Part shown: one piece after another, positions 10,399-61,952 of the stretch
Layout: the number at the start of each line of letters is the position of its first letter
Position numbering within the stretch: position 1 is the stretch's first letter
NCBI GenBank assembly: GCA_964106915.2
Contig: OZ066926.1
Direction: 5' to 3' (one strand)
From: Podarcis gaigeae
Lineage: Eukaryota
DNA: 64,000 bases
The notes under the pieces: generated by a model
The model's database searches: none
The model's input: the letters and a program-made list of their open reading frames with translations, nothing else
Told to the model about the DNA's origin: nothing
Made by a program: the position numbers and the translations under genes

Positions 10399-10611
10399 CT
10401 TTAGGCATGCTACTCTTCCTGTCTGCATTATGGGGCTAATGCTAATCAATCTGGCAGAGTTGTTGCAATGATTGATGCTACAAGGTAATGTATATTACAT
10501 GCTTTGAACATTCAAAAGCGCTATACAAATGTTGTGCATTTTTGTACTGCTAATATTGTATACCAGTTCAAATGGAGCTAATCAAACCTTGAATGTGCCA
10601 TTGTAAATGTA

Positions 10612-10775
10612 AAGTTGCCAATCAGAATGCTGGTGGTTCAAATCCCCACAATGGGGTGAGCTCCCATTGTTCAGTCTCAGCTCCTGCCAACCTAGCAGTT
10701 CAAAAGCATGAAGTGCAAGTAGATAAATAGGTACCACACTGGCGGGAAGGTAAACAGTGTTTCCATGCGCTGCTT
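10612..10775 (+). mobile_element. Truncated Sauria SINE
   Basis: ggttcaaatcccc...ctcctgccaacctagcagttc...gcaagtagataaataggtacc core shared with the full copies in this window. Confidence 0.75.
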
Positions 10776-10888
10776 GCGTTCGTTGTCACCCATTCTTTTA
10801 ATCAAAGATCTTCCTCCTGGAAACCTTTGAAACTATATGGATACATTTGACTTCAAACTTTGTAATTTAGTGTACACTTATGAAGGAT

Positions 10889-11220
10889 AAAAGGTAAAGG
10901 GACCCCAAACCATTAAGTCCAGTCGCAGACTACTCTGGGGTTGCGGCGCTCATCTTGCTTTATTGGCCGAGGGAGCCGGCATACAGCTTCCGGGTCATGT
11001 GGCCAGCATGTCTGAGCAGCGCATGGAAACGCTGTTTACCTTCCCGATGGAGCAGTACCTATTTATCTACTTGCACTTTGATGTGCTTTCGAACTGCTAG
11101 GTTGGCAGGAGCAGGGACCGAGCAACGGGAGCTCACTCCATTGACGGGAATTGAACCGCTGACCTTCTGATCAGCAAGTCCTAGGCTCTGTGGTTTAACC
11201 CACAGCGCCACCCGCGTCCC
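10889..11220 (-). mobile_element. Sauria SINE
   Basis: Reverse complement runs GGGACGCGGGTGGCGCTGTGGG to ...ccctttaccttt tail; tRNA-like head with GGTTCAA box. Confidence 0.9.
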
Positions 11221-11326
11221 TTGCCATTGTAATCAGAGCAAAATGAAATACAATCTATCCTGCCTTTTCTTCCTCATTTTGATTGGGTGATATCCAGCAT
11301 TGTAAGAGTGGAATTCCCTTCCTATC

Positions 11327-11873
11327 TGTGCTGTTCCCGGGGGAAAGGTACCGTTACCGTAGTCTGAGTTCACAAGATGAGAGGCGAGGTCCGAATCAGG
11401 GAGCCGGGCGGGGAACAGGAACGCTGGAAGGTCAGAAGCAGGAGGCCGGGCAGGGAACAGGAACGCTGGAACGTCAGGAGCAGGAGGCCGGGCAGGGAAC
11501 AGGAACACTGGAAGGTCTGAAGCCAACAACGACGTTGCTCCCGCAACCTGGGACCGGGCTGACTGACCTTTATCTTCTTCTAAGGCCAGGGGCGGTCCTG
11601 GCCCCCTGGAGCCCCGCCTCCTCTGGCCTTAAGGCGAGCACTCCTCCTGGGAGCAACCAGTTCCCTTCGCCTCTCTGCCCTAAGCCTCTGCAGTTCAGAG
11701 GAGGCCGAAGGGTTACTGGGCCCCGGAGGAGGCTCACCTGTAGACACTGAGTCCTCAAGCACCTCTGGGGCCAGAATGGTTTCACCTGGTGCCTGCTCCT
11801 GAGGATCTGACACAGGTGCAGGCTCCTCAGAATCTAGGCCTTGCCCCAGTTCAGCCAGCCCTGGAGGCGGGGA
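11327..11873 (-). repeat. 3' LTR lacking its first 61 bp
   Basis: Aligns to 15260-15760; three copies of the 42-bp repeat and a 4-bp duplication (ctga); joined directly to integrase sequence at 11873/11874. Confidence 0.95.
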
Positions 11874-12012
11874 TCTTAGTGAAATGGTCGGAGAAAACTA
11901 GAGAAAACTAGAAGGCAGGTACAGCCTCGAGACGGGGGTAAGTCCACTACAAAGTCCAGCGAAACCGTGTGCCAAGGACGTGGTGGAACTGGCAATGGCT
12001 GAAGTAGGCCGG
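11874..12012 (-). pseudogene. Frameshifted start of the integrase core
   Basis: An alternative frame gives [42 protein letters not shown]; 10-bp tandem duplication gagaaaacta at 11891-11910; then a deletion junction into the LTR. Confidence 0.85.
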
Positions 12013-15000
12013 GGGTTGCCCGGTAGGGCCCTTGGCCCGCCGGCAGACATCACAACCAGCAACGTAGCGAGCCACGTCAGCTTTCAGGCGGGGCCACCAA
12101 AACTCACGGCTTACCAGATGGGTGGTCCGATACCGCCCAAAGTGCCCCGCTGCTGGGGCATCATGGGTCATCCGGAGAACCTCAGCCCGCAGTGGCCCTG
12201 GCAGGATGTACAGGCGACCATGGTGCAGCAGAAGGCCCTGATGCAAGACCAGCCCCAGATACTGAGGGCTGGACCCTTCAGCCAGCTCCCGGAGTTGTTC
12301 CTGGGCCCAAGCGTCGACCCGCTGCTGTTCCTGCACCCGAGCCTGCAGTGGCTCAGCCTCCTGGGTGGCCAGGAATGCAGCTGGTGGTAGGATCGTGGTG
12401 GGTACTGCCTGCTGTACCGTGTCTGCGTTGTCTTCAGGTTTCCGGGACAGGGCATCCGCCTTCTGGTTTTGGGAACTAGGGATGTAGCGGATCCGGAACT
12501 GGAACCGGGAAAAGAACAACGCCCACCGGATCTGCCTTCGGTTCAGCTTGCGGGTGGTCTGGAGGTACTCCAGGTTCCGGTGGTCGGTTCTCACCTCCAC
12601 TGGGTGTCGTGCCCCCTCAAGATGGTGGCGCCAGACCTCAAAGGCCACCTTGATGGCCAGTAGTTCCCGCTCCCACACGGTATAGTTACGCTCCGCTGGA
12701 AGGAGCTGGCGGGAATAGAAGGCACAGGGTAAGAGTGGCGCTTCAGGTCTATACTGCTGAGACAAGACGGCACCGAGAGCTGTACTGGAGGCGTCGGTCT
12801 CCACCACAAAGGGTCGAGAGGGGTCAAGATGTTGCAAGATCGGCACTCTCTGGAAACAGGCCTTCAACCCCTGAAACGCCTCCTCTGCCTCCTTGTCCCA
12901 GGAAAACGGCGTCTTGGGGCGCAGTAGCCGGGTCAATGGCGTGGTGTGCTGAGCATAATCTGCAATGAAGGTCCGGTAATAGTTGGCGAACCCCAGGAAA
13001 CGCTGTAGGTCCTTGCGGTTCCAAGGTGCCGCCCATTCTCGAACCGCTGCCATCTTCCCAGGATCCATCTGCACCCCATCTGGAGAGAGCCGGTGACCAA
13101 GGAAGTCCACAGACCGCTGATGGAACTCGCACTTGCTGAGCTTTGCATACAAACGGTGCTCGCGCAAGCGCTGCAGCACGGTCCGGACATGACCCTCATG
13201 GCTAGCCGGGTCACGGGAGTAAACCAGAATGTCATCCAAGTACACCACCACGTACTTGTCTAGCAAGTCCTGGAACACGTGGTTGATGTACCGTTGGAAC
13301 ACAGCAGGCGCGTTGCACAAACCGAAGGGCATAACCAGGTATTCAAACTGCCCGTGCCGGGTCCCGAATGCTGTCTTCCACTCATCCCCGTCTCGGATCC
13401 GAATCAAATTGTAGGCCCCCCAGAGGTCTAGCTTGGTGAACACCTGCGCCCCTTGCACCCGCTCCAGCAACTCCGAAATAAGGGGCAAGGGGTACCGGTC
13501 TGGGATGGTCATTTTGTTCAGGGCCCGGTAATCATGGCAAAGGCGGAGCTCCCCACATTTCTTCTTAACAAAGAGCACTGGCGCAGCGGTGGGCGAGGTA
13601 GAAGGCCTGATGAAACCACGCTCCAGGTTCTTGCGCAAGAAGTCCTGCAAAGCCTCACGCTCTGGCTCTGTTAGAGAGTATAAGCGACTCACCGGTAGGG
13701 GCGCTCCGGGCTGGAGGTCTATGCCACAGTCAAAAGACCGATGCGGCGGCAGCTGGTCTGCCCCCCGTTCCTCGAACACGTCTTGGTAGTCCCGGTACAC
13801 GGCTGGGAGCGTGGGTGCTGCCTCCTCCGTGGGTGCGGCCGCTAGCATCTCGGACTGAGCATGGGAACATGGGTCTGGGAAGTGCACAGTCCATTTGACC
13901 CAGTCAATCTGAACATTGTGAGCCTCCAGCCAGTCCATCCCGAGCACCAGGGGGAACCGGGGCATGGAGGCAATGTCCAAGGTTCGCACCTCCCGGTGCT
14001 GCTGGAGACACAGGACCAAGGGCTGGGTCTCCCGAGTGACGGCACCCGAACGCAGGAGCCGTCCGTCAATTGCCTCCACCTGTACCGGTTCTGGCTTGTT
14101 CTGAAGTGGCACCTGATGATGAGCGGCAAAGGCAGCGTCCATATAGGAGCGGGTTACCCCCGAATCTACCAAAGCGTGGGTAAGAATCCAGGGCCCACCT
14201 GGAGGGTAGAGACGCACCGGTACCATGAGATGTCGCAATTCCACTGGTGAGGGCCCTTCTTGCATGGTTTGGGACCCCATGTTGCTAGGGCCTTCGGCTA
14301 CCGAGGTTGGCGGTCTCCCTGCGACTGGTATCTTCTCGGGACAGGAACGGGCATAATGTCCACTCCCACCACAGTAAAGACACAGGTTCCCCTCCCGACG
14401 CCGCGACTTCTCCGAGGGGGAGAGGCGAGGTCGCGCAGCCCCGAGCTGCGTTGGCTCGACTGGCAACTCGGCTGTGGGCGTGGACCTGCTGGGAAGGACT
14501 GGCGCTAGGAGCCGGGAGTGCTGGCGATCCCGGGCCTGGCGACGGTCCTCCAACCGATCGTCTATCTGCAGGCTCCGCTGAATGAGGTCGTCCAGTGTGG
14601 TGGGACGATCCATCATGGCCAACTGGTCCAGTATCTCGTCCGACAGTCCCTCAAGATACTGGTCCCGTAGTGCAGAGTCATTCCAAGACAAGTCTTGTGC
14701 CAACAGCCGAAATTCTGTGGCGTAGGCGGCGGCTGTGGACTTGTCCTGCTTCAACCGACGAATCGCCCGATTGGCTTGGCTCTCCTTCAGAGGGTTACCA
14801 AACACAGTCTCTAAGTGGTTACAAAACCCCACATAGTCCGTTAGCAAAGGAGAGTCTTGCCGGAGCAGTGGCAAAGCCCACTTGGACGCCTGGTCCTTTA
14901 ACAAACTGATTAAAAAGTGCACCTTGGTGCGGTCGTCTTGGAAGTTCCGGGCTCGCCCCTGAATGTACAACTTGGCCTGGGTGAGGAACATGGGAAAACT

Positions 15001-15195
15001 GGCCGGGGCCCCATCAAACTTCTCAGGTAAAGCCACTGGGTACTTGCCAGGAGCCGGGGCGTCGGCCCCAGGAGCCGGTAGGGCGTCCAAGCGCTGCTGA
15101 AGTGCCGTAACCGCGTTGCTGAGCTGCTGCACGGTGTGAGTCAAGGCCTGGTTCTCCTGGGCTATTGGCAGCAGCGTAGCCGCTTGGTCGGCCAT
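11947..15195 (-). CDS. Gag-Pol polyprotein in a single ORF, truncated in integrase
   Basis: From MADQAATLL: coiled coil, PEKFDG capsid, CCHC knuckle [14 protein letters not shown] (about 14341-14382), protease LVDSG (about 14160), RT YLDD (13231-13242), RNase H TDAS/ERELLA/TDHRNL/ADALSR, integrase HHCC (H..H..CDVC); frameshift at 12011-12015. Confidence 0.93.
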
Positions 15196-15243
15196 GGCTT
15201 CTGGCTCTTCCCGAACGCACCCCAACAAAGGGGGAGTGCGGGA

Positions 15244-15259
15244 GGTGGCGGGAGCAAAC
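15244..15259 (-). promoter_or_regulatory. Non-tRNA primer-binding site (self-priming type)
   Basis: GTTTGCTCCCGCCACC immediately after the 5' LTR lacks the TGG of tRNA PBSs and is complementary to GGTTGCGGGAGCAA at 15439-15426. Confidence 0.7.
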
Positions 15260-15821
15260 TGTGCTGGTCCCAGGGGAAAGATACCGTTACCGTAGTCCGA
15301 GTTCACAAGATGAGAGGCGAGGTCCGAATCAGGGAGCCGGGCGGGGAACAGGAACGCTGGAAGGTCAGAAGCAGGAGGCCGGGCAGGGAACAGGAACACT
15401 GGAAGGTTTGAAGCCAACAACGACATTGCTCCCGCAACCTGGGACCGGGCTGACCTTTATCTTCTTCTAAGGCCAGGGGCGGTCCCGGCCCCCTGGAGCC
15501 CCGCCTTCTCTGGCCTTAAGGCGAGCACTCCTCCTGGGAGCAACCAGTTCCCTTCGCCTCTCTGCCCTAAGCCTCTGCAGTTCAGGAGAGGCCGAAGGGT
15601 TACTGGGCCCCGGAGGAGGCTCACCTGTAGACACTGAGTCCTCAAGCACCTCTGGGGCCAGAATGGTTTCACCTGGTGCCTGCTCCTGAGGATCTGACAC
15701 AGGTGCAGGCTCCTCAGAATCTAGGCCTTGCCCCAGTTCAGCCGGCCCTGGAGGCGGGGACTCCTGTGCAGGCTGGGATTCCTCTGGTTCAGCCTCTGAA
15801 TCGGAATCCCAGGCCATCACA
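15260..15821 (-). repeat. 5' LTR (562 bp, TGTGATGG...CAGCACA)
   Basis: About 98% identical to 11327-11873; GATAAA TATA-like box at 15461-15456; two copies of a 42-bp internal repeat. Confidence 0.95.
15467..15817 (-). CDS. LTR(U3)-encoded 116-aa acidic/Pro-rich protein with basic RRSARL tail (putative)
   Basis: ATG at LTR nt 5 in strong Kozak context (GTG ATG G); stop just before the TATA-like box; frame also open in the 3' LTR (11580-11873). Confidence 0.5.
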   Translation of the reverse strand: MAWDSDSEAEPEESQPAQESPPPGPAELGQGLDSEEPAPVSDPQEQAPGETILAPEVLEDSVSTGEPPPGPSNPSASPELQRLRAERRRELVAPRRSARLKAREGGAPGGRDRPWP

Positions 15822-16550
15822 CTATCCTTCTACCTGTAGCCTCTTGCCCTGCCTTCATCAGGGTGTCCCACCTTTACCTGCCACACAACTGGCATTTTAC
15901 ACATTATCCTACTTGTGTAGGGCAAGTGAATGTGGATTGGGATGGATCCATGGAGCAAATTATGACTTTGGATAGGACTAATTCAGTCCACAGGGAGGCT
16001 TTGCCACACTGGTGCCTGGGAAATGCCTTGGAAACTGTGTATCTGGATTAAGGAGGCAATAAAATGGGACACCATTTTGATAAGCACCATGCTCGTGTGC
16101 ATGCAGGAGCCACACTGAAGGCACATAAACTGTCACATGGAAGCACCCACAGATAGTTATCAAGTGTTAACTGGTTTAAATTGGCTCCTAATAAATGAAG
16201 TAAAGCTTTGGGCAGCAGCAAACAGGCCTCCATCACCCAGCAGGTGAGGCAGCTTAGAATGCAATGGGCCTTTTGCTGGTCCAGCTCTGCCCACTCCCCA
16301 ACTTGTTTCAGTGGTTAATAATGGCTTCTGTTCGTGGGGATACCCCCAACACTAGCTTCCACCCACCATTCAAAAACTGCAGCAAGGAGGGACAATTCTA
16401 TCTCATCCAAACCTGTTCCAACATTTGCTCTACCCATTAAAAAAAACCATTAAAACTGTGCTTCTCTTCAGATGGAACAGAATCCTAGCTTATTTTTTTT
16501 TGGGGGGGGTGTCCTGTGGTGACTGAACAGAAGCTTAAAGAGTGATAGTA

Positions 16551-18589: not shown

Positions 18590-19480
18590 CGAGATCTCAG
18601 GGCGGTTCAGGACATAAAATTACAATATAAAAAACACCCCCAAGCCTTCTTGGGCTTGATGGCTGGAGGGACTGGAGACGCGCCGTGACGCAGCCACCTG
18701 CTGCTGCCCGCGGGGAGAGCGCTCCGGGCCGCCGGGGGCCGCGGGAGGGCGCGGCGAGGGCCACGGCAGGCGCCTGGCTGGGCGGAGTCCCGCGTCCGGC
18801 CCCTCGACGGCCCTTCGCCAATGCCGGGCGCGCAGGGCGGAGCCGGCCGGCCGCCTCAGAGCCGCGCTCGCCGCGCCTCGCTCAGCCGCCGCCGCCGCCG
18901 CCGCCGCGGACGCGTCTTCTGCTGGGGGCTCCGCGCGCCCGAGTCCGGGGCCGAGAGGGGGCAGCGCGGACGGGCAGGAGGCGAGCCCGTCCGAGCGGGG
19001 AGGTAAGCGGGGCGAGGAGCGGGGCTTGGCGGGACTGCGCGCCTCAGGCAGCGCCGCCTTCCCAGGAGCGCCCGCCAGTTCCGGGTCCCGGGTGGCCTTT
19101 TTTGGGCGGCGGCGGCGGCGGCGGCCAGGCAGGCGGCCCCCCAGAGCTCCGCGCCCGGCCGCTGAAGGCTGCCGAGTCCGACGGGCGGGCGGGAGGGAGA
19201 GGCGCCGGCAGCCCCGGCGCGCGCGGGTTGCGCCTGCTGCTGCTGCTGCTGCTGCCTCTGGGCGCCCGCGCCGGGGAAGGCGCTGCTGGCTGGCCGCCTC
19301 CCGGGCTGCAAAGCGAAAGCGCAGAGGCATGCCAGGGCCGGCGCGGGAGGGAGACGGCGCTCTCCCCTGCTGAAGTTGGCGTCTAAACATTGCCGGGCTC
19401 CGCTGTTGCCCTCTTCGAGGAGAGGTCCCGGCTGCTGCTGTGTTTGAGCCCAGGCTCTCGGAGCTCGTGGAGCGGTCGAA
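18590..19480 (+). promoter_or_regulatory. TPPP: CpG island / TPPP promoter
   Basis: Very GC- and CpG-rich; CRE-like GTGACGCA about 18685, GC boxes GGGCGGAG at 18780 and 18835, CCAAT at 18818; lies upstream of TPPP exon 2. Confidence 0.8.
18850..19002 (+). other. TPPP: Putative non-coding first exon of TPPP (TSS approximate)
   Basis: Strong donor GAG|gtaagc at 19002/19003 inside the CpG island; exon 2 begins only 4 nt before the ATG, so an upstream UTR exon is required; contains (GCC)7. Confidence 0.65.
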
Positions 19481-22400
19481 ACAGAGAGATGGCATTCTTT
19501 GAAATTGCAGGAGCCTTCTTGCAATTAAAGGGACGGATCCCTTTGGACCTCTTGCTCGGAGATGTGCACCCTTCTGCTCTAATAGATCTTGCTTTAAAAA
19601 ACCGACTCCCTTTCTAGATCCTTTCTGCCCCTCAACCCCAGAGAAATCGGAAAGATTTTGCTGGCAAATAAACAGCATCTTCCTGTAAACAGAAGCTACA
19701 CACATACACGAGGGGGGTGGATGGTGGCGCCTGGGCGGGGGATGTGTGTGGATGTGATGGGGGAATCTTTAGGTTCTTCCTAGTTATGGCTTCTAGATTT
19801 TTCTGGTGTTTGTCTAGGTGCTTCAGTGTTACGTAATAGATCTTGAGAACTGGAGTCTGTGTCAGACTCGCTGAGGACCCCCTTCCCTTTCCCCTTCCAT
19901 TGCAGTGTTTATCTTTCATTTTCTGGGGAAGAAGGTTCCTGAGAAGAGGTTGTCAAGCAATAGCTGGGTGGCAGCAGCAGCAGCAACTGAGGCATGTCCT
20001 ACACAAGGGAGAATAAATTATGCACCTTCCCTGGAGGTAGCAGGTGCAATGGAAATGATTCACACTGGATCCTTCGGTTCCACTTTCTGATTTCATTCCC
20101 GCCAGAGGGAGAGCAATATTTACTCATTTCCTCAGCATGTTGCTGTCTGTGCACAGCACCTGATCTGGGCTGCAGTCCTCAGACCTGGCCATTTCCGAGC
20201 AAGCCCCTTGCGTCAGGCAGGAAGATTGCAGAGAGAGGGAGCTGGAGGGCTGGGGCAAACCCCCAAAACACAGGGGCTCAGGTGGTCTTGTGTCCTCTGC
20301 AGCAGGGGGGGGAGGCAAGATCTGTCGGCACACAGTCCCTGAGGCCCCTTCCCTGAATTTTCCGCTTTCATTCTTTTACAGCCTTTTGATTTACACAAGT
20401 CAATAGAAGGGAAAGGCAGGCAGGCAGGATTCTACCTTGTTATACAGTAACACCCCCCCCTTCTGCCTTCTAGTATGCTGACCAGTGAGGACAAAAGTAC
20501 TGAGGTGACTGGAACTATATCTTAGTAAATAACTGTAAAGGGTAAATATATCTTGTGTTTTGATGTGTCATGCCCTATCTGGGCATGAACCACACCACAG
20601 GAAGTGTGTGAGGGGGCTGCGCATGTCTGCACTGTGTCCCAGCAACCCCCTCCCCCCAAAGTGCTCCCTGTGTCTTCAGTGAGCAGCCATGTTGGGTCTG
20701 ACCCTCTGACTTGGAGGATCTTTGTACAAGTAAAATAAACGATGGCTTGTCGCAGTGATCTGGGTGCTAAGGAGAGCCACTCTGCACAAGCTCAGAATCT
20801 TTTTATTATTATTTCAGGACAGTTGCATCACTGGAAAACCTCTGGAGATTAGATTATTTTTATTCTGCCTGTTACAGTTTTGGCCTGGTTCTTGCTAAGG
20901 TGGCGAAACCTGTGCCTGAAGGGTACCATTTTATAGTGTAGGTGGAGGCTCGTTAGAAGGAATGCATTACCTGCACATAGAAAACTGGTATATCAAGGAG
21001 AAGACTAGCCTAGAGCCCTTCTCTCATTGGCATGTTGGTTTTCTGTGTGCTCTTAACCACCTGCTTGGTTTGTTCATAGGGAAAGAAGAGCAATTTCTCA
21101 GAACTTTGTAAAATTGAAAACTTTGCAGTCGATGAATCTATTACTAGGGAGATCTAAGTAACCAAAATTACATTCTTATGCCATTTCCATATGATGGAAA
21201 ATACAGATTAGTTTTTGTCTACATGGACAAAGTGGTTCCTCCACTTTTTCAAATGACACTCAAGTGTGGTAGTTCTGAGTTCTATTGTCTATTGTGTCCG
21301 GAGACAATAGTTATTTCAGAGAGCTGAAGAGTGATCTAAGATGGGCATCATTGCCAATGGTGTGCATGCTCATCCCACTGTAATGTCTCTTCATAGGTTT
21401 GTAACTTTTTGGGGGGTAATTCAGAAACCTACAAACTGGTTTCTGAATTACATTGCCTGCCTTTCATGTGAAATTGCTGTATGTACTAACTTTTAATGAA
21501 GTATCCACATGAAGCCTTCATCCAATCATTGTCTTCCTTCATTTTCCCATGGTGCTTCCACCTTTTCCCAGGCAGAAGAAGGTCCTCCTTTTCCCAGAAT
21601 GGAAGAGTTTGTGCTGTTTACACAGTTCTGGATGCCTTCAGTGTTACTCCTCCATACTTTTAGAAGGGGGTGGGTGACACATCCAGAAAGGGGGCCTATT
21701 GCAGCTCAGCACACATTCATAATAGGATTTCTGGCAGGTGCCATTTCATGACCATATCTAACTAGGCCTAAACGCATACCTCTCTGGTCTCTTTAAATGA
21801 ATGAGAAAAGCCATAATGCCTTCACATTACGGTAGTGCACTTGTGTATGTGAGTTTATTGTGGGTTTGTTGCCACTCATGCTTGCAATTTAGTTTTTGCA
21901 GCATCTCTATGATGTCCTGCTCATCAAAACGCCATCCCACATTTCCTCCCTTTAATTCGGATTTATCATTTCTGCAGGTTGTTTTTTAAAAATGTGTTAG
22001 GTATTCTTCATATTTCAATGGGGAAGAAAATGGGGTGCCATTTTGATGAGGGTGATACTGTGTGGACACTGCAAACAAACACGACTCCAGAGTACTGATG
22101 AATCAACAATAAACTCACATAGCTGTATTCTTATTTTTATTTAAACTATTTATTACATGCTCTTGGGTCCATAGCTCCATCAGCATTGGTGCTGAGTCTC
22201 AGTGCCACTATAGAGAATGCCCTCTCATGTCACCTCGTACTGTATCTCAGGCGATAGAGGTGCAAGCTTTCAGTCTCCTCCTCTGGCAAGCAAAATACGA
22301 CGAACAGCACATGCAAGCTTGTTAATGTGGTGGGAATCCATAATCTCCCTGAAAAACTGATCCATAGGCCCAGGAGCTGCTTACCCACAACTCTCCTCAT

Positions 22401-34619: not shown

Positions 34620-34930
34620 ATGGCTGACAACACAAGTAAACTCACCAAGCATGTGAACAAAACACCTCCAAGGTCTCCTGCAGATTCCGCAAAAGAAAAA
34701 GCAGCCAAAAGGTTATCCTGCGACTCAAACAGCTCCCACGACGGGGCCAGTGGGCCAGAGCTAAGTGCTCTTGAAGAGGCTTTCAGAAAATTTGCTATCC
34801 ACGGGGATACGAGAGCCACGGGGAAAGAGATGCATGGGAAAAACTGGTCCAAGTTGTGTAAGGATTGCCACGTGATTGATAGCAAGAACGTGACTCTCAC
34901 CGATGTTGACATCGTCTTCAGCAAGATCAA
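34620..34930 (+). CDS. TPPP: Tubulin polymerization-promoting protein p25-alpha, first coding exon (exon starts 34616)
   Basis: MADNTSK...KTPPRSP...AAKRLS...[57 protein letters not shown]; the disordered N-terminal tail is specific to TPPP1; acceptor tttag, donor gtaatt, phase 2. Confidence 0.97.
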
Positions 34931-35281
34931 GTAATTTCTCCCTCCGCTTCTTCTGCCTTATCTTACATCTCCCCCCCCCCCCCCGATATTTGTATTGCTT
35001 AGTCTGTTTGTGAGTAATAATAGGTGGAATATGTTGGTTACATATACCCCAATTACATCATAAACATTGTTTTTAAGTTCTGTAAAACGCGGGGAACACC
35101 ATGCTATCTTCAGATATTGTTGGACTTCAGCTCTCTCCAGCCCCAGCTAGCATGGGCAGTGATCTCAGGTGATGGAACTTAGAGTCCAGCAGTATCTGGA
35201 GAGCACCAGGTTAGCTCCGCCATGCTTTACAAGTTTAGACTGCACATCTGAGTTTATTTTTCTGTAGTAATTAGCATTCAC

Positions 35282-35662
35282 GGGACGCGGGTGGCGCTGT
35301 GGGTAAATGCCTCAGCGCCTAGGACTTGCCGATCGAAAGGTCGGCGGTTCGAATCCCCGCGGCGGGGTGCGCTCCCGTTGCTCAGTCCCAGCGCCTGCCA
35401 ACCTAGCAGTTCGAAAGCACCCTCGGGTGCAAGTAGATAAATAGGGACCGCTTTCTAGCGGGAAGGTAAACGGCGTTTCCGTGTGCGGCTCTGGCTCGCC
35501 AGAGCAGCGATGTCACGCTGGCCACGTGACCCGGAAGTGTCTTCGGACAGCGCTGGCCCCTGGCCTCTTGAGTGAGATGGGCGCACAACCCCAGAGTCTG
35601 GCAAGACTGGCCCGTACGGGCAGGGGTACCTTTACCTTTACCTTTACCTTTACCTTTACCTT
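35282..35662 (+). mobile_element. Full-length young Sauria SINE with (TACCTT)n tail
   Basis: 14-bp TSD taattagcattcac; CpGs intact. Confidence 0.95.
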
Positions 35663-36420
35663 TAATTAGCATTCACAGGTTACACATTCCAGGCGAAAAT
35701 ACATTGAGTGATAGCCAACAGTCATACTCAAGAGTCAACACATTGAAATTAATGGCCTTAAGAAAATTAAGTATATTTTAATTGACAAAATGTATGTACT
35801 GTTTTAATTAATAACATCAAAGCATAGAAGCATATTAAATTATTGATTAAAATACCAATGAAATCAAGCATTAGCACCATGTTGGCATAACATTTATTAA
35901 AATATAAACAAAATAAGTAGTTTTAAAACAAATGCACAAAGTTAAAATTATTTGTCTGGATAGACTTGTCTTTAAAAATGCTTTTAAGAGGTGCCAAAAA
36001 TAATTCTCCAAAGTGTAGGTGCTGCTACACTAAAGCATCAGTTCCTTGCAAGTGAGGAACAAACATTATGTGGCAGTTGTAAAAATGTCAGTTCTGCAGA
36101 TAGAAGCAGTTGAGCGGGTGCATACAAGGTAAGGCAGTCCTTCAAGTCAACTTAAAGGCTTTATATACTAATAGTAATATCTTGAATTTGACTTAGAACT
36201 TTAAAAAAAAAATTTCAACAAGACTAAATATAACTAACCTTGTATATTGGTCATTATTAGCTTCACTTCTGAAAATCTCCCTAATACTATTTTTATTCTG
36301 GGACAATTACTGTGCACTGGATATTTGTGTGAGAAAAACTGTTTTGCAGATTAGATGTATAGTGCCTGGTATGTACACTTCTGAACTGTTTTGGAGTCTG
36401 GCTTTTGCTGAATATTGTTA

Positions 36421-36780
36421 GGTAAAGGTAAAGGTACCCCTGCCCGTACGGGCCAGTCTTGACAGACTCTGGGGTTGTGCGCCCATCTCACTTAAGAGGC
36501 CAGGGGCCAGCGCTGTCCGGAGACACTTCCGGGTCACGTGGCCAGCGTGACATCGCTGCTCTGGCGAGCCAGAGCCGCACACGGAAACGCCGTTTACCTT
36601 CCCTCTGGTAAGCGGTCCCTATTTATCTACTTGCACCCGGGGGTGCTTTCGAACTGCTAGGTTGGCAGGCGCTGGGACCGAGCAGCGGGAGCGCACCCCG
36701 CCGCAGGGATTCGAACCACTGACCTTTCGATCGGCAAGTCCTAGGTCTGAGGCTTTAACCCACAGCGCCACCTGCGTCCC
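36421..36780 (-). mobile_element. Full-length young Sauria SINE
   Basis: 12-bp TSD tgaatattgtta; same subfamily as 35282. Confidence 0.95.
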
Positions 36781-44313: not shown

Positions 44314-45171
44314 TATTTGCACTGCTGTCATTATTATGTGGTAAAGTGAGGTGAATTGGATTGTGATGTGCTTCTTATTTTCCAGCACATTTCAGTGGGG
44401 GATAAGGGAGCATGAGTTGTTCAAACCAGCACATCAAAATTGCTTCTACTCGTGTAACATTTGCTCAGCAAATGTGATGTTGTGTTGTGGATACAGGTTG
44501 ACCTGAAGGCTGCTTTCAACTGCAGAGTGAGTATCCATTAATCATGATGCTAGGCTGCCACAGCTACACGCCAGGCAAACAGAAATCCTGAGAGTAGAGT
44601 TACGGCACAAGAATGGAAACATTGGCTTGTTAAATGCTAACCAAGCAACAGATGAACTGATCACTTGGAGCTGCTTGGGACATGATTAAAAGAGGTAGCA
44701 AGGGATTTTGGCCAAAGGAGTACAGTGCAACGTATTAATTGCATCTTGTTACAGAATGGACTCCCATCAAAAAACAGTCTTTGCATGCTTTGACAGAGAC
44801 GATAATTGGTGTGAAATTTATGTACTATATATAGATAAAGGGAGACTTGTGTATTGCTAAAGGAGCCGAAATTGATGTTACATGAAACCATTCCTCTTTT
44901 GAGTTTTCACGTTGACTTCAATGATGTGGTTAATATCTAGGATTTTATTTTGTTTTTAACTCCGGAAGGGGTAGGAAATGCAAGCATGCACCTCTTGCCC
45001 TTTTTCATCTCTTGGTATTTTACTTATCCCATTTGAAAGTTGTAGTGATGTGGGAATGAGAGTTTAACTTCTAAAACCATGTACGTAGCACAGAAACTTA
45101 GTTTTATGCACTAAGGCCTATTCTGAGAAAGTAGAATAGTAAATAAGACACCTCTAAAATATTGTCCTGTT

Positions 45172-45525
45172 GGGACGCGGGTGGCGCTGTGGGTAAAACC
45201 TCAGTGCCTAGGACTTGCCAATCGTACGGTCAGCGGTTCGAATCCCTGCAGCGGGGTGAGCTCCCGTCTTTCGGTCCCAGCTCCTGCCCACCTAACAGTT
45301 CGAAAGCACCCCTAAGTGCAAGTAGATAAATAGGTACCGCTTTCTAGCGGGAAGGTAAACGGCATTTCCGTATGCTGCGCTGGTGCCGGTTCGCCAGAGC
45401 AGCTTCATCACGCTGGCCACGTGACCCGGAAGTGTCTCCAGACAGCGCTGGCCCACGGCCTCTTAAGCGAGATGGGCACGCAACCCTAGAGTCGGACACG
45501 ACTGCCCGTACAGGCAGGGGTACCT
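45172..45525 (+). mobile_element. Sauria SINE
   Basis: TSD taaaatattgtcct; full head and core. Confidence 0.92.
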
Positions 45526-46951
45526 TAAAATATTGTCCTATTTTTGCCATTTCTGCTTGTTGGGCAATTTTGTGAAATCCAGGTCCTCATATGTAAGATA
45601 TGCAGAAGTAGCACATAGATCAGATCGTAATCCCCTGTTGCTCTCTTCTTTCTGCTGGGTGCTGGTTTGCATAGGCAGTAATTGTGCCTGGGGTCTACCA
45701 TTGGCCAGACTGATCAGGGTTGCTGGCAATCCAATGACACTTGGAGGTCCACAGATGGGCCACCCCTACCCTAGAGCACCATTTCAAGACCCACTGGAGA
45801 CCAGGGTGTGTGGGGTCTTCACTCATTTTCAAATACAGTATCCTACTTCCCTGACCTCCAGCTGTGGACACCAGTGAATGCTGGAATCTCTCTTTGTTTT
45901 TGTCTCTGTTTGGACTTCCCAAAGAATAACTATGTGGGGTTGGGTGAGGTGAAGCTCACAAGGACATGATTTTTTTAAAGAGCTCTTTAATTATAATCAT
46001 GTTTCCTGCAAAACACTCCCCTGCAGAACAACTGTAGAAAAATCACCATAGCGACCAGTGCCGAGGTGAATTATAGCATCTGTTTACATTTTTAGGTTGC
46101 TAAACAGGAGATTAATATAGGAAGTGAAGGAAGCATGGCTGAACTTTTCCTCAGTGGGAAAATGAAGAGGCTGAATACAACAATGGCAGAAACTGAATTT
46201 AGCCAGGACACCTGAGTTAGTTTAACTTCCCTGTTTCCATCACAGCATTTGCCTGGAAACAGAAGCTTGAGGATCTGAATAGCAACACCATTGCCTAACT
46301 TTTTATGGGCAAGGTGATTTTCACACTACAATGCACTGGTAATATTTGAGGGCTTGTTCATATTATTAATGGTGTTGCTTTTAAAAAAAAAACCAACAAA
46401 AACTATGTTGTAGCTGAATATTGTTTTTCTCTAGAGAAACCATTTGGTTTGTAAAAAAATGTTGTTTCACATTCTCTACTTCCCTGAGGGACAGGAAGTT
46501 TCAGTGAAGCTGTTTTAGAGGCTCAAGTTCCTTGTGAGGACTTTGTTCTGGGACATGTGCTGCCTTTTGTTATAAACTACTTATTTACAAAATGTGTGAG
46601 TCTCTCACATGGGCAACTACAAGTTTCAGAGCAACACCAGCTTGCTACTCTAATGTTTCTAGAAGTAGTTTTTGCCCGCCACAGGTCTCTTAGCACCTTT
46701 AATAAACAAGCTTTACTCTCACATTATTTTTGTTTGTTCCTGCCTCGGGGGATGGAGTCAATTAATAATTTACTTTATTGCAGGAACAAATGACAGGAAA
46801 GATGCCAGTTTGATCTGAACAACCCTTTATGTATGTGCTTTATGTGTTTTTATCTTATGCTGGTCTATCATAATTGAGAGAATGAGTATTTGTACGCCCA
46901 ACTTCTACAGTTGCCCTATTGACTATTTAGCATGTGCTACTTATGGATGTA

Positions 46952-47302
46952 GGGATGCGGGTGGTGCTGTGGGTTAAACCACAGAGCCTTGGACTTGCCG
47001 ATCAGAAGGTCGGCGGTTCGAATCCCCGCAACGGGGTGAGCTCCCATTGCTCAGTCGCAGCTCCTGCCAACCTAGCAGTTCGAAAGCATGTCAAAGTGCA
47101 AGTAGATAAATAGGTACCACTCCGGCGGGAAGGTAAACGGCGTTTCCGTGCGCTGCTCTGGTTCGCCAGAAGTGGCTTAGTCATGCTGGCCACATGACCT
47201 GGAAGCTGTACGCCGGCTCCCTCAGCCAATAAAGCGAGATGAGCACCACAACCCCAGAGTTGGCCACGACTGGACCAAATGATCAGGGGTCTCTTTACCT
47301 TT
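46952..47302 (+). mobile_element. Sauria SINE (second subfamily)
   Basis: TSD tacttatggatgta; tail gatcaggggtctctttaccttt. Confidence 0.92.
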
Positions 47303-49992
47303 TACTTATGGATGTAGGTGCTTTTGACAGAATGTCTTCTGATACAACGGGGCAACTCTTTGGTGCAAGATTAGCTGCAGCTCTCTAATTGCCACACTTT
47401 TACCTTATGCTGACCTATGGCCATAATAAAGATTCCTCCTCCTCCTCTTCTTTCTTCTTCTTCACCTTTTTAAAAAATTCTTCACCAATTTAAAGCACAC
47501 ATGCGCGTGTCCGTGCACCCTTCATGTAGAAATTTAATAGACCAGGTAGAAGCATTATTGTAATCCTTAATACGCTAGTTTGTACATAAGAAAGGTTTTC
47601 ATGCTGTTTTCTCTCCCCAGCTTCCCGCCAGCCTGAAGTGCACAGCCAGAATTTTGATCCCTCCTTTAGCACAATTTGTAGAATGGGTCTTAAAATTTCC
47701 AGGTCCCTGCATTGTGACATTGGCAACTAACTCTCTCATCTAGGCCTGCTAGAATACTGTGGGTCTGGTTCACTGCGCTCCATTTTTAATCTTCTGGGTG
47801 TTATAATTTCACTGGCCTGATAGATGTTTCTGTCCTGTAGGTTCGTCCCACTGTTATGGCTCCACTATTTTTAGAAGATGTCTGAGCCTTCTCTTGGTGT
47901 TTCTTGCTGTTCAGAATGGATGAGTACTTGTCTTCTAGTTGTTTGCAGATTCTTCCTAGGCCCCAGCTCGAGATCAGGATGTAGCTGGCCTGGTTTATGC
48001 TAGGTTCTTTCTGGGCTGACTTAATAATGCTGCTCTCTTTAATTAACAGCAAAGCCATACCAGCTATGGTACCCTGCAGAAGTTACTTGGCATCCCCACT
48101 CCAAAACAGAAACCATCCAGACATTCATATATTTAGAAAGTCTTTAATTAATGTTCATTTTCCTTTCCTCCTTATTGGAGGTGTCTTTAAGTGCTACTCA
48201 CTATGGCAAATGAGGAAAGGTTTTATAAGCTGGAAAAGATTCCAGTTCTTCTTTTATTCTTTTCTAGGCTCTCAGTGTGCCAATGATATCTGAGATATTT
48301 ATAGGTTAGCAATGTCTGTGGATTCTGGAGCACTTTGCTGTTTCACAGAGGAAACAGCCCTAAGTGTGCAGTCATCAGGGTATTATATCTCATGGCTCCC
48401 TGAATATGTACCTCTCCAATAAATGTGTTTACAAATACACCGAGGGTTTTTGGAAACAAATATTATATTTTAGGTATACACATAAAGCATTTAGGATATG
48501 TACACCTTAAAAAATAGTGATGTGCAAATCAGCTCTTATCTGCAAGATTGATGGAGAGGCTCAGGAAAAAATAATGGGTCTAGCTCAAGAATCAACATCT
48601 TTAACTCGAAGGGCATGTTGGAACTGTTAGCGTAATGAGTACAAGAGGCTCAAGCAGGTTCCTTGGAACGCTCACATTTGTCATTTATGACCAAGAGCTC
48701 CCCAGGTTTTACAGAAATGAACTGCCCCCACTGTTGGAGGCAGTATGCCTCTGAACTGCAAGGGAGGAGGGCGCTGGGGCACTCAGGATTTGCTTGTGGG
48801 CTTCCCATAGACATCTGGTTACCGCTGTGAGAACTGCCCTGTGATTGGATCAAGGGCGGTATAGAAATTAATTACCGGTAATTGAATTAATTAAATGCTG
48901 GACTAGATGGACCTTTGGCCTGGTCTAGCATGCTCTTTTCTTCTGGACTCAAAATATTTATATTTATTTCAGAGATTTATATCCCTTCCCAGGCAGCTTC
49001 TACGACATGGTAAAACAACGGAAACTTAAATAGAAATGGAAAACAGAACAAAACCCATGTATGCTTGTAAACACCCCTGGTTTGAAATTTTCTGCTGCTC
49101 CACAGAATAATGTGCCTTTTGCTCAGCTGAAACGAGTGCCAGCTTGTCCCATTTATGGAGGCTATCAGCTTGTGCTAGGTAGGCATCTAGCATAGCAGTA
49201 AAGTGCTGTTCCTTGCAGTGATTTGTGGTACCAGCCAAATGTTCATTTTTTTATTCTGATACACTCAGCTGTAAGGATTATAGGCTTATTAAATTAAGGA
49301 AATCAGTACATGAATTTTTTTTTAGTCAATGGCAGCCTTTTTCTTATTCATATTTAATATCAGTAGAACTCCTAATTTAATGTGCCACAAGATAATGCCT
49401 CTCTTACAAATAATAATAATAATAATAAAAATAAATAAATAAATAAATGGAAACATGAAAATGATGAGCGAGTGGCCTTGTAACAGGACAGCAGGTCATT
49501 GTGCTGTTGTTAATCCTGTTCAATTGCTGACTTGCTCTGTGCTTAACAATAGTGGGAAACTATATTGTTTAAAGAAATGCTGCGTTGTTTGGATGTACTT
49601 CTCAGTAAACACAAGAGGCCACAGGGCAGTGCATATGAGGCATGGCTTGGACGCTGTCAGAAATCCCTCCACTGGCCTGAGAAATGGCTTCATAGCAGGA
49701 AGATGGGCAGACTGGCACTCGGATGGTAGCTGCCATCATCAGTTCACGTGCTGTTGCATATCTTACAAAGGGATGTGACAGAGAAATGTGAAGGGGGGGG
49801 GGTGAGTTAAGAGGGTCAGGAATGGACTGCAGTAGCAGCTCCCCCCCTCACTTCCTTCCTCTCAAGGGGTGCAAATAGCCAACGGCCTATAACAAGCCAG
49901 TAGTGAGCCACAAAATTCCCAGTTAGCAGCAACCTATTTAGATATAAAAACAACAACAATAACATGACTGAAGACTCTGAAATAAGATGTAA

Positions 49993-50335
49993 AAAGGTAA
50001 AGGTAAAGGGACCCCTGACCATTAGGTCCAGTTGTGACCGACTCTGGGGTTGCAGCACTCATCTCGCTTTATTGGCCGAGGAAGCTGGCGTACAGCTTCC
50101 AGGTCATGTGGCCAGCATGACTAAGCCACTTCTGGCAAACCAGAGCAGCGCACGGAAATGCCGTTTACCTTCCCATTTACCTATTTATCTACTTGCACTT
50201 TGACGTGCTTTCGAACTGCTAGGTTGGCAGGAGCAGGGACCGAGCAACGGGAGCTCACCCCGTAGGGGGGATTCGAACCGCCAACCTTCTGATCGGCAAG
50301 TCCTAGGCTCTGTGGTTTAATCCACAGCGTCACCC
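49993..50335 (-). mobile_element. Sauria SINE (second subfamily)
   Basis: (AAGGTA)n reverse tail, shared core. Confidence 0.9.
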
Positions 50336-51908
50336 ATCTGCAAATTCCACCATGATTAGAGTGTTTTCAGTACTAGAGTACCTGAGAGCAAACCGTTCAT
50401 CTGAGAAAGTGATTTTTTTAAAAAAGGAGAAAGTATGGATAATTTAAGAGTATACAAACCAAAATATGAGAGCAAGCCTGAGCAAGTGAGCTCAAGATGT
50501 TGGACATATTATTTCTGAGAGAAACTCTGGAAGCAGTTCTCATTTAAATGCAAGCGTAACAGAAAATTGCATTAAGGTAATGTTGAGATGGTACCTAATT
50601 CTAGCAATGACCAATAGAAGAAATAGTAACTATCCAAAAACATGTCGGGAAAGAAGCAGGAGGCTAATATTATATGTGGTGGAAATACTGTAGAGTGCAG
50701 AAATATCTAACAGAAGTTCGGAGAGCGCCGATGAATACAGGTCCTGCTTGCAGACTTCCCGTAAGGATCTGCCATTGGCCACTGGAGAACAGGCCCCTGC
50801 TCGACTGGATGGGCCTTTGGGCTGATTCTTCAGGGCTGTTCTTAGATTTGTATGTTCCCAATGCATGTCTTTTGGATAGAAGAGCGTCTTCCACCTCCCC
50901 ATGTATTTCCAGAATGGTTGGTTGATTAGGATGGGGAGCCTGTGGCTGGAATACATTTCCTAACACCCCTGACCGTGCTGGCTGGAAGTTGCAGTCAAGC
51001 AACATCTGGAGGGCCACATCTGGAGGGCCATTCCTGGCTTGAGCACTTAGTGGCACAATGCAACAGAAACAGGCAATATCCATCTACAATGCACAGTCTG
51101 AGCCAGCCGTCTGAGGCATCTCTAGACTTCTTGCTGGAGCCCCTTTCGTCCTCCGTTGGGCTCCCTCTGCCAGCAGGGCCCACCTGACACCCTCGCAAGA
51201 CAGGAAGCCCTTTCTACCCCACCTCCCCGCAAAAAAACCCTGTGTTGCTGCCCAGTCCTGCCCTGTGAACGGCTGCTGCCCTCAGCCAGGGCTTGCTTGG
51301 AAACCTCTAGTCCTGTGAAAAATAAACTGGGCTTATTTACTTCTGAGTTTAAAAATAAAAATAAACCTTGCCCTCTTCTTCAAGCCTCTTCCCTCCGTTC
51401 TCCCCTTCTGCATGTCTGTGTGTGTTTGTGTCTCCCTTCTCCCTTCTATAGTTTTGTTCTGTAAAATTTTATCACATTCTTTCTAGTTTGGCTTGGTTTA
51501 TAAAAGAAAATAAACAATCAAATAACTGGTGTTCAGGGATACACACACACACATTCAACTAAAACTCAATAGTGAATTATATTTAAATATCTAAAAGCAT
51601 GACACAGAATTGGCTTCTTGTTTAGTAATGTAATTAAAGTTTTAGGGAACATCCTCTTACATTAACTTTGATATCTGTGCTACTAATTACTTCTGCAGCT
51701 TTAATTTTAGAGAAAATGTGTTAATTTAAAATTATCTCTATTATAAAATTACAGTTGTAGTAATATGCTAAAGGTAATTTAAAACATTATCAGTTTTAGA
51801 CTCCTAAATATTAGCAGCTGCCAAGATATTACCCCGTTCTACATAGATCCATCCTTATTTCAGACATTGTAATATATTGGTATATCACAATGTTTAGCAG
51901 GTGATATA

Positions 51909-53589: not shown

Positions 53590-53943
53590 AGGGGGAAACC
53601 ACTGAGCCTCTTGGCCCTGCTGATCGGAAGGTTGGCGGTTCAAATCTGTGCAACAGCGTGAGCTCCTGTTGCTCTGTCCCAGCTCCTGCCAACTTGGCAG
53701 TTCGAAAGCACACCAGTGCGAGTAGATATATAGGCACCACTGTGGCAGGAAGGTGAACAGCGTTTCTGTGCACACTGGCTTCTGTCACGGTGTTCCGTTG
53801 TGCCAGAAGTGGTTTAGACATGCTGGCCACACGACCCAGAAAGCTGTCTGTGGACAAACGCCTGCTCCCTTCGCCTGAAGCAGGATGAGTGCTGCACCTC
53901 ATAGTTGCCTTTGACTGGACTTAACTTCTTCTTTTTTTACCTT
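53590..53943 (+). mobile_element. Older Sauria SINE
   Basis: Diverged core ctcctgccaacttggcagttcgaaagca; flanked by taacaaggatgg. Confidence 0.8.
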
Positions 53944-54654
53944 TAACAAGGATGGCTTTACAATCTGACTCTTCGAGCAGTGGTGTGGAGTCACTAATCC
54001 AGGTCATTCTGTTCATTTTTCACTCTCATGTGCAAAATAGTAAGTCGATAAAGCAGCAGAAAATTATTGAAAACAGCAGCTGTTGATGCTTTTTGGTTTG
54101 GAGAATTTTTTTCTGCTTTGTGTTTACTTTTGGGGTTGTTTCTGTGGTCTGTTTATATCACAGTTCTTTGTTGCTTGGAGTGACAACACATTCCATACTA
54201 GTTGGAGTGCTTTGCTTGGTTATTCTAAATTGGCCTTTCTTGGTTAGAAGTTAATATTCCAGATAGATTCCTTCCAGCACTGTTTCTGTTGAACATGCTG
54301 GTGTGTCCACAGGGCCCCTTTAATTTAAGACAACAGCAGTTTGCAGGCTTTTATAGGAGGTGGGACAAACTGCCAGCTAGGTTCCTTTTTCTTTTCTTTT
54401 CTGCCACAACAATGTGATTTACCAACCAAACAGCTTTGGCTGGCGGGTGGAGTGCAGCTTTGAGGGTGACTCCCTTAATGCCAGCTTCTGCTTCCTTCTC
54501 TTACATATTTGGAACTGGAATACTTCTTCAGCTTGATTGGCAGACAAAATACAGATGTCGTTTCCTGGCTCTGTCGTTTGCCTTTGCAGGCAAAGAAAGA
54601 GCAGTTGTGAGAGCAGTTGCAACCAAGCCAGTTTCATAAGTTATAAAAAAATGC

Positions 54655-55156
54655 AGCCCATAGATTGTATTACTGTAGCCTGTTCACCTCTTTGCTGCAA
54701 GATGGTTGAAAAACTTTAGCTGGTGCAAAATTCATTGACCAGGTTGCTTACTGGGACAAGATGGTTTGCACATATAGCACCAATTCTGGCCCAGCTGCAC
54801 TGGCCGCCATTCAAAGTGCTGGCTTTGACTGATGAAAGGCTTAAAACCTCAAGGACTGTCTCTCTCCATAAGAAACAAACTGGACCCTGCGATCCTAATC
54901 TGAGACCCTTCTTTGTGTGCTCTCCCCAAGGAGGCACTCCTGGCATCTTCATTAGGCGCCAGGCAAAAACTTTCCTTCATAACAAGGCCTTTAGCTGATT
55001 CACATTCTGTGACTTTTTAAATGTGTTTGTGGGCAAGGGTTATTGGTTTGTTTGTTTGTTTGTTTGCTTGTTAGTTTTCATTATGTTACGTATTTTGTGT
55101 TTTTGTTTTGTAGATCGCCCTGCAATCTTCAAATGAAGGGCAGTATATAAATGAAT
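54655..55156 (+). mobile_element. Degenerate L2 3' fragment
   Basis: KL.LVQNSLTRLLTG..HIAPILAQLHW..FKVL peptide and L2-type 3' UTR. Confidence 0.7.
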
Positions 55157-55158
55157 TG

Positions 55159-55451
55159 GGGACTTGGGTGGCGCTATGGGTTAAACCACAGAGCCTAGGA
55201 CTTGCTGATCAGAAGGTCGGGGGTTCAAATCCCCACGACGGGGTGAGCTCCCGTTGCTCGGTCCCTGCTCCTGCCAACCTAGCAGTTCGAAAGCACAAAG
55301 TGCAAGTAGATAAATAGGTACCGCTCCGGCAGGAAGGTAAACGGCGTTTCTGTGCGCTGCTCTGGTTCGCCAATAAAGCGAGATGAGCGCCGCAACCCCA
55401 GAGTTATCCGTGATTGGACCTAATGGTCAGGGGTCCCTTTACCTTTACCTT
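55159..55451 (+). mobile_element. Sauria SINE inserted in the L2 tail
   Basis: TSD tatataaatgaat; internal deletion relative to other copies. Confidence 0.9.
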
Positions 55452-60930: not shown

Positions 60931-61952
60931 GGCTGTCAGTGATGTCAAGGGGAGCATGGTGCAGTCTCCAAATAGTTGGATTTGGAAGGATCGAGCTGCC
61001 CAAGCTTAGTCAGATGATCATTCCTTTTTTTAGAACAATACTTCAGCCATTTAGTTTCCCTTTGCCACGTGTATAAAGAATTTTGCTGTAGTCTGCATAG
61101 TTCTCATCAACATACAGCTAAATGGAAAGTGAGAACTTTGAACTCTTTCCAAGATGGGGCAAATTCCATGTACCCCACTGTATATAAGTACGAAGGGGCA
61201 ATCACTGTGGCTTTCTTTGCTGACCTATCTCCCCCCCCCCCCAAAAAAAAAAGGCTGCACATTCTGGTGCATTCTAAGCCACCCTGGGTATTTGATCACC
61301 AAACTGCAGCCCAGTCCTAACTGTGGAAATGAGTTGCTTGCTTCTACTCTCAAAATCCAGGGCTAATTCTGAAGATTAACAGAGCAAGGCGAGCCATCGC
61401 CAGCCCATGGCATTGCCAAGTAAGCAGTGGCACTACCTCTTTCACACTAGCTTTATCAACAATATTATGGGTTTAAGGGCACCAAAGGCTCACTTACCAA
61501 ATACCATGATGGTGTGGGGAGTAAGCAGCAGTGGGTTGCCACTGCTCACCTGACCTCTGGTCAGTTGTGTTTCTGCGACATACCAGGCGGTAGATGAGGA
61601 GAAAGGTTGGCACAGTACAAATATGCCAGCCGAGCTGAGCACTGATGTCACCACTGACTCCATCTCCTGCTAAGTGGTAGCAACCAACTGGAGGTTAGGT
61701 AAGCCATGGCAGCCCACCCACCCACCCCCATCCGCTACTGGGAGAAAGCTGTGCCATTATTCCTGGTTCAAGACCCATGGCACTTTATAGAAATTGAACT
61801 GAAGCTGAGAAGTTTGCTGAGGTGATGGCTGAGCTGGAGGGCCACGCTCTGCTCCTTACCTCAGTGGAACTTAATATGATGAAAACCTAAGATTGATCAA
61901 TGAAGGAGGTCAACCTGTTCCAGTGCCTGGGAATAGAATCCCCCTAACTCAA

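Follow-up and report, generated by a model that had tools for sequence, protein, structure and literature searches.

A defective chromovirus copy in Podarcis gaigeae with a predicted self-primer in its LTRs and, in its family, a U3-coded integrase tail

Anatomy and family of the element

The stretch of DNA analysed here, referred to as the window, comprises 64,000 nucleotides of Podarcis gaigeae (contig OZ066926.1 of assembly GCA_964106915.2). On its minus strand lies an LTR retrotransposon (Table 1) with the order gag-PR-RT-RH-IN between LTRs and a target-site duplication, which is the Ty3/gypsy arrangement found in the Tf1/sushi group. A single frame from the ATG at 15195 encodes the capsid, a CCHC motif of the CX2CX4HX4C form, protease, RT, RNase H and the integrase zinc finger. 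When compared to family member P0021, the copy is without the remaining part of integrase, and the deletion also takes away the chromodomain, the PPT and the initial 61 nt of the 3' LTR; a chromodomain is found at the integrase's C-terminal end in P0021 and P0023. Just ahead of the deletion junction there is a short tandem duplication (CTAGTTTTCT, twice) at 11890-11915. The LTRs are identical at 491 of 502 aligned nt, with insertions of 4 nt and 42 nt in the 3' LTR.

Table 1. Coordinates of the element and of its features in the window
Feature	Position	Strand	Remarks
Target-site duplication GATAG, upstream copy	15822..15826	-	
LTR retrotransposon	15821-11327	-	5-bp target-site duplication GATAG at both ends
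5' LTR	15260..15821	-	562 nt, TGTG...CACA
Coding U3	15467..15821	-	117 codons V-M-A-W...; in intact family members, Pol continuation past chromodomain and PPT
RRSARL codons, HMGN-like motif	15518..15535	-	context PRRSARLKA; putative function
GATAAA, TATA-like box	15456..15461	-	also the sole poly(A)-type hexamer in the LTR (13 variants scanned)
Predicted self-primer GCGGGAGCAA	15426..15435	-	predicted transcription start 15435 (T/G junction)
42-nt pyrimidine-rich unit of R-U5	15336..15413	-	edges approximate; about 2 copies in 5' LTR, 3 in 3' LTR
GT dinucleotide between LTR end and primer-binding site	15258..15259	-	unpaired by primer; putative role
Primer-binding site TTGCTCCCGC, then CACC	15248..15257	-	
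Leader hairpin behind the primer-binding site	15209..15243	-	z -2.4
gag-pol frame	11947..15195	-	ATG at 15195; frame lost near 12010
Deletion junction	11873..11874	-	about 1.07 kb absent relative to P0021
3' LTR	11327..11873	-	truncated at 5' end
Second copy of GCGGGAGCAA	11535..11544	-	in 3' LTR, 30 nt behind GATAAA
Target-site duplication GATAG, downstream copy	11322..11326	-	

The RT-RH region is 95-96% identical to that of Podarcis muralis gene models, including P0021 and P0023. In a tree of 104 RT-RH sequences, the element falls with those of Podarcis, Anolis and Naja (support 0.96), adjacent to elements from amphibians and fish, and its neighbors are chromodomain-bearing relatives; deep supports in this tree are at most 0.86, and it was built without a named Tf1 or sushi-ichi sequence. 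Two loci of the fish clade, L030 and L048, carry the self-priming signature described below. In all likelihood, this copy, which is defective, comes from a lacertid family of Ty3/gypsy chromoviruses belonging to the Tf1/sushi group.

Elsewhere in the window, the first part of a p25-alpha (TPPP-family) domain is encoded by an exon at 34773-34931 on the plus strand, and a very GC-rich stretch, possibly a promoter island, was noted at approximately 18600-19800, at a distance of about 2.8 kb from the 5' LTR. A SINE family, which we take to be Sauria-SINE-like, occurs in many copies on both strands (10590-11220, 35280-36780, 45170-47310, 50000-50340, 53590-55450 and 61950-62320), with one copy about 100 nt behind the 3' end of the element.

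Primer-binding site and predicted self-priming

A preliminary description of this DNA had proposed that the 5' LTR is followed by GT-TTGCTCCCGC-CACC instead of a TGG-starting primer-binding site (PBS) and that a perfect 10-nt complement of this site stands in both LTRs. Both observations were confirmed, the complement GCGGGAGCAA being located at 15435-15426 and 11544-11535; beyond these two copies it recurs in the window only as the PBS itself. The locus presents the combination that serves as the criterion in the consulted passages of PMC6317226, namely the lack of a tRNA-type PBS together with 10 nt or more of complementarity to the LTR, beginning 0-5 nt behind it. The extension of the match to 13 of 14 nt is real in the window copy, but in contigs of run X1 one or two letters at 15243-15244 are often absent. 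The outer pairs are thus variable, and it is the 10-nt core that constitutes the feature. A 14-nt primer starting at 15439 is less likely, given this variability and the length of 8-12 nt seen in relatives, and a splice-made primer is unnecessary, the complement being contiguous. Among the 40 variant rows listed, none falls inside the primer or PBS, which carries no evidential weight as 148 further rows exist.

It had also been stated that GCGGGAGCAA lies about 25 nt downstream of GATAAA. The distance is 26 nt in the 5' LTR and 30 nt in the 3' LTR, where GTCA is present twice. RNA reads of relatives often have 4-5 extra letters between GATAAA and the primer and mostly show the letter of the 3' LTR at 15425; the 3' LTR therefore looks closer to the family. 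Folding gave a primer-PBS pair probability of 0.73-0.99 for starts from 15435 to 15440, at most 0.13 for starts at 15434 or 15432 and approximately 0.37 at 15445. The predicted start narrows to 15435, a T/G initiator, which the 3' LTR form places 30 nt behind GATAAA.

The same hexamer could be read in another way, as a poly(A) signal with the RNA ending near GGGAGCAA, a start further upstream and priming by the RNA 3' end or another route. The LTR contains no poly(A)-type hexamer other than GATAAA, none being found behind the primer, and a GT-rich stretch does follow the primer. Neither starts nor ends pile up in three RNA runs, which carry another species label and are thin (127-267 reads each on LTR and leader); the missing start pile-up is in line with this reading. 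Against it, the start at 15445 lowers the probability of the duplex as given above, and across relatives it is the 5' edge of the complement that falls on an initiator behind TATA-like boxes, while its 3' ends vary (see below). We regard this reading as highly improbable, slightly more so than priming by a host RNA, which is discussed further on. GATAAA could nonetheless serve as both promoter and poly(A) signal. In two bulk RNA runs, reads on the start of U3 (15700-15821) are mostly in the orientation opposite to those on 15300-15520; these may represent antisense read-through into solo LTRs of relatives.

To place the signature among relatives, loci were collected by an RT-RH alignment search, in which the best 80 of 584 confirmed metagenome stretches gave 79 loci, and by an alignment-based scan of IMG/VR, which gave 64 loci of which the 3 close ones were taken. 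A single-sequence scan of viral contigs produced no match. The 61 other IMG/VR loci (25-33% identity), which from their size would be caulimovirus-like, were excluded from the priming counts, and three of them were used as outgroup. The resulting 82 loci, of which those from metagenomes are probably for the most part non-vertebrate, formed 73 clusters, and 57 of these were testable in having a candidate LTR end upstream of gag.

In 23 of the 57 clusters, 9 nt or more of perfect complement start exactly 2 nt behind the candidate LTR end; 30 swapped controls had a mean of 0.9 and a maximum of 3, and each of the other offsets within 0-6 gave 2-6 clusters. For 10 nt at offset 2, the count was 10 clusters against 0.2 in the control. 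The other 34 clusters fell short of 9 nt at this offset; many contigs are without an R region. Clusters with at least 8 nt number 27 and carry 25 different sequences, 8-12 nt long. In these, the 5' edge of the complement coincides with a pyrimidine/purine (Y/R) initiator in 23 of 27 (120 of 383 for chance matches), the base behind the complement is C in 20 of 27 (29% expected from the comparison), and the 3' ends are variously AA, AG, GT, CT and AT. A TATA-like box occurs 26-38 nt upstream in 11 of 26 clusters versus 7 of 98 control windows. The window element fits this pattern in its offset of 2, its T/G edge and its TATA-like box, and in the following C as regards the 3' LTR and most reads. 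These loci are kin by descent, for which reason p-values overstate their independence, although the letters differ between clusters; three AT-rich or repeat-like matches that are probably due to chance (L007, L008 and L034) were retained in all counts.

Compensatory change between R and the PBS, which the preliminary description had suggested looking for in subfamilies, was thus sought across the clade rather than among lizard subfamilies, and the same geometry was found with unrelated letters. This recurrence with different letters, together with the Y/R edge, lends support to self-priming and, indirectly, to a start at 15435. The possibility that the match arose by chance in a GC-rich LTR was also weighed. 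At least 10 nt of perfect complement to the 18 nt behind the LTR arose in 46 of 5000 dinucleotide-shuffled LTRs, and 27 of 3332 interior 18-mers had such a complement to the real LTR; a 10-nt match somewhere in the LTR is therefore expected at a level of about 1%, before its position behind GATAAA is required. That position, the Y/R edge and the offset of exactly 2 all speak against chance. It is rejected by the finding of the pattern, in other letters, for 23 of 57 clusters as opposed to 0.9, and is the least credible of the explanations considered.

Several AT-rich relatives have their complement at offset 0 instead of 2 (L007, 10 nt; L008, 11 nt; L014, 13 nt; L046, 10 nt). L038 is also AT-rich and falls in the same group; in L001, another AT-rich relative, no complement was found. 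Offset 0 is nearer to the geometry of Tf1, in which the PBS adjoins the LTR. At many of the PPT-LTR junctions of loci L004-L080, a 3-nt spacer (TAA, TAG or TAC) separates a G-rich PPT from the TG of the LTR.

The complement in R might instead have a structural role, in folding, packaging or strand transfer, with a host tRNA half or another small RNA priming at the PBS. The search for tRNA genes covered the 64-kb window, which has none. No tRNA-type PBS was found, the first TGG occurring only 36 nt behind the LTR. A tRNA 5' half that ends at about nt 39-40 necessarily includes U33, whereas the last 10 nt of the would-be primer are free of U. Across 27 clusters the PBS takes 25 different forms, and each matches its own LTR, which also argues against a host primer. 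Half-tRNA priming is known in copia elements, and in the consulted part of the plant survey concerned it is reported solely for copia lineages (PMC6317226). Judged from these sequence features, such priming is very unlikely here.

Self-priming is supported by the grouping with vertebrate chromoviruses, by the PBS not being of tRNA type and by a geometry that recurs with unrelated letters, and the following course is in our view very probable. Transcription would begin at 15435 and nt 1-10 of the RNA would pair with 15257-15248. The RNase H of the element would then cut behind this duplex and free the primer, in the manner of Tf1, where the primer is the first 11 nt and the cut falls between nt 11 and 12 (PMC7175516, in part). 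From this primer, RT would copy GT and then U5-R, and the DNA end would bear two extra nt. The constant 2-nt offset suggests that such a dinucleotide overhang is removed by integrase, which would trim it.

The GC-rich hairpin noted earlier behind the PBS is real yet modest: 15205-15247 folds at -19 kcal/mol (z -2.4), and 3 of 200 shuffles equal it. The whole leader (15435-15190) is not more stable than its shuffles (z +0.74), and a search of Rfam returned a chance-level match only. Tf1 requires a three-duplex 'pretzel' in which both flanks of the PBS are paired with LTR sequence, according to the portion of bioRxiv 2022.12.06.519325 that was available. In a crude test, a leader-side duplex of this type was not found in the window element (shuffle p 0.98-1.0) and the U5-side duplex was unremarkable (p 0.86 for the 5' LTR and 0.44 for the 3' LTR); by the same test, relatives had duplexes at p of 0.05 or less in 6 of 21 cases on the leader side and 2 of 21 on the U5 side.

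Passages of PMC6317226, PMC4600332 and bioRxiv 2022.12.06.519325 describe self-priming as common or implicated in Tf1/sushi elements from fungi to vertebrates, citing Butler 2001 and Lin and Levin, and hairpin priming is mentioned for some chromoviruses (PMC3601003, in part). The signature is already described for the vertebrate Tf1/sushi group, and the lizard case adds a member. A literature search that covered few subscription journals, with repeat databases outside its scope, returned no paper on a self-priming gypsy LTR element in a lizard. In the sections of the cited literature at hand, the mechanism is demonstrated for Tf1 and elsewhere only implicated; the lizard element yields a sharp prediction (start at 15435, a 10-nt primer and a 2-nt unpaired spacer) and a geometry that is testable throughout the clade.

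Coding U3 and its HMGN-like motif

The preliminary description addressed priming only and does not include the coding capacity of U3. Here an open frame with an ATG at 15817 ends in TAG at 15469-15467, the stop lying 5 nt ahead of GATAAA, and its product has an acidic, proline-rich stretch followed by a basic block. The Podarcis family proteins, which are automated gene models, include eight with a chromodomain. In seven of these, Pol runs through RGGPGR(G/E)DG, the translated PPT, into V-M-A-W, five of them reaching the end of the U3 frame and two leaving it early, while the eighth (P0020) has a stop 3 residues past the chromodomain. At the junction, D-G-V-M agrees with an LTR that opens with T-GTG-ATG, and this favors a frame without splicing. 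In these predicted proteins, the Pol frame of the family is shown to pass the PPT into the 3' LTR, adding approximately 117 residues behind the chromodomain. Gene models in which the ATG of the 5' LTR is spliced into gag or a receptor gene (P0003, P0005-P0008) were judged to be prediction artefacts and were not used for read-through; the tails behind the chromodomain of frog gene models, for the most part spliced chimeras, gave no information.

Variation within U3 was examined among the 40 listed rows mentioned above, which contain 17 U3 variants. Twelve of these are synonymous, where 26% would be expected at equal rates (transition bias raises this expectation), and 12 of 17 fall at third codon positions (p 0.002); for gag, 5 of the 11 variants listed are synonymous. 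A 6-residue deletion in the tail leaves the frame intact. Identity amounts to 22-23 of 24 residues in the basic block versus 47-56 of 60 in the acidic part. On this pattern of variants, the U3 frame looks to be under selection. A PPT was recognisable in 41 relatives; the frame enters the LTR in 10 of these and in none continues past 35 residues. Pfam has no family for the tail, and a lead from a protein atlas (0.76) was not counted as evidence. Whereas the priming signature is ordinary for the group, the coding U3 is the less expected part and sets this family apart.

Tails were also observed in other elements. A second Podarcis family from Podarcis muralis (P0044, P0292 and P0293), distant at 52-53% RT identity, combines a degenerate chromodomain with a long acidic tail of 140-300 residues behind it that is without RRSARL. 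In the fish-clade locus L030 (4296-4446), 24 residues extend into the 3' LTR and end in SPEY after RGRPR-type basic repeats, which is a short LTR-coded tail in another lineage; protein P0169 has the same end.

The tail of the lizard family contains the sequence RRSARL. The pattern R[RK]SxR[LI] was found 10 times among 293 proteins, six of these in the family tail, and the core RRSxR(L/I) with its three arginines is present in the window and in six family proteins. Binding to the nucleosome acidic patch is described for HMGN through RRSARLSA, for Dsup through RRSSRLTS and for Dot5 through RRSARIAT (PMC12487698 and PMC13347269, each in part). It is conceivable that RRSARL of the tail binds this patch as well, a proposal that follows from the motif and that we advance tentatively. 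More tentative again is the broader model, in which the whole U3 of the family, to 5 nt before the TATA box, would code a tail that furnishes the chromodomain-bearing integrase with an HMGN-type acidic-patch anchor on a flexible acidic linker. U3 would then be both a promoter and an integration-targeting gene in a self-priming element.

An explanation toward which we lean slightly is more ordinary: U3 may be open by accident, or the tail may be a spacer or nuclear localisation signal, with RRSARL an ordinary basic motif devoid of nucleosome binding. RRSxR-type motifs frequently occur at the ends of retroelement integrases, the integrases of many relatives end in short basic tails, and RRSARL was picked after the fact. 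Moreover, an in-frame reading by eye of loose ends at 15546 in RNA reads of relatives yielded RRSACL, with the anchor arginine lost, in runs X23 and X24, and RKSARL in run X21. An accident is unlikely in so far as the variant pattern and the in-frame indel show that the frame is kept, and an ordinary basic motif has to be set against a match to HMGN, Dsup and Dot5 that covers all three of the arginines tested in those proteins (PMC12487698 and PMC13347269, as far as available). The literature search, covering few subscription journals, returned no paper in which RRSARL or an HMGN-like motif is joined to a retrotransposon integrase. If RRSARL does bind nucleosomes, a retrotransposon integrase would share the HMGN anchor in addition to having a chromodomain, and this would bear on the choice of insertion sites by vertebrate chromoviruses.

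Comparison with known systems

A close likeness is to the vertebrate Tf1/sushi elements (sushi-ichi, Amn-ichi, -ni and -san of the GyDB V-clade). With these the lizard family shares the Ty3/gypsy order, a chromodomain at the integrase end (in family members), a Gag with CCHC and a PBS complementary to its own LTR in place of a tRNA. It differs from the non-yeast members of the group, which for the most part use a -1 frameshift according to a portion of bioRxiv 2022.12.06.519325, in having Gag and Pol in one frame.

In this last feature it resembles Tf1 and Tf2 of Schizosaccharomyces pombe, and the predicted RNA 5' end is complementary to the PBS as in these elements and in Tj1 of S. japonicus. 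There are differences to the fission-yeast elements as well. The primer has 10 nt here and 11 nt in Tf1, the PBS stands 2 nt behind the LTR, the leader-side 'pretzel' duplex of Tf1 was not found in this element, and the Gag proteins of Tf1, Tf2 and Tj1 are without the CCHC that is present here.

The extension of the polyprotein into the 3' LTR has a parallel in the centromeric chromoviruses of plants known as CRM group A. In that group the 3' LTR codes a putative targeting domain, a CR motif stands in for the chromodomain, and priming is by tRNA-Met (PMC3059260, in part). The lizard family, in contrast, retains its chromodomain, which is followed by an acidic linker and a basic motif, and has no tRNA PBS.

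The motif of the tail differs from that of HMGN in reading RRSARLKA where HMGN has RRSARLSA and in being part of a transposon polyprotein. What it has in common with the HMGN, Dsup and Dot5 motifs is the RRSARL core, placed after a proline in a region of low complexity.
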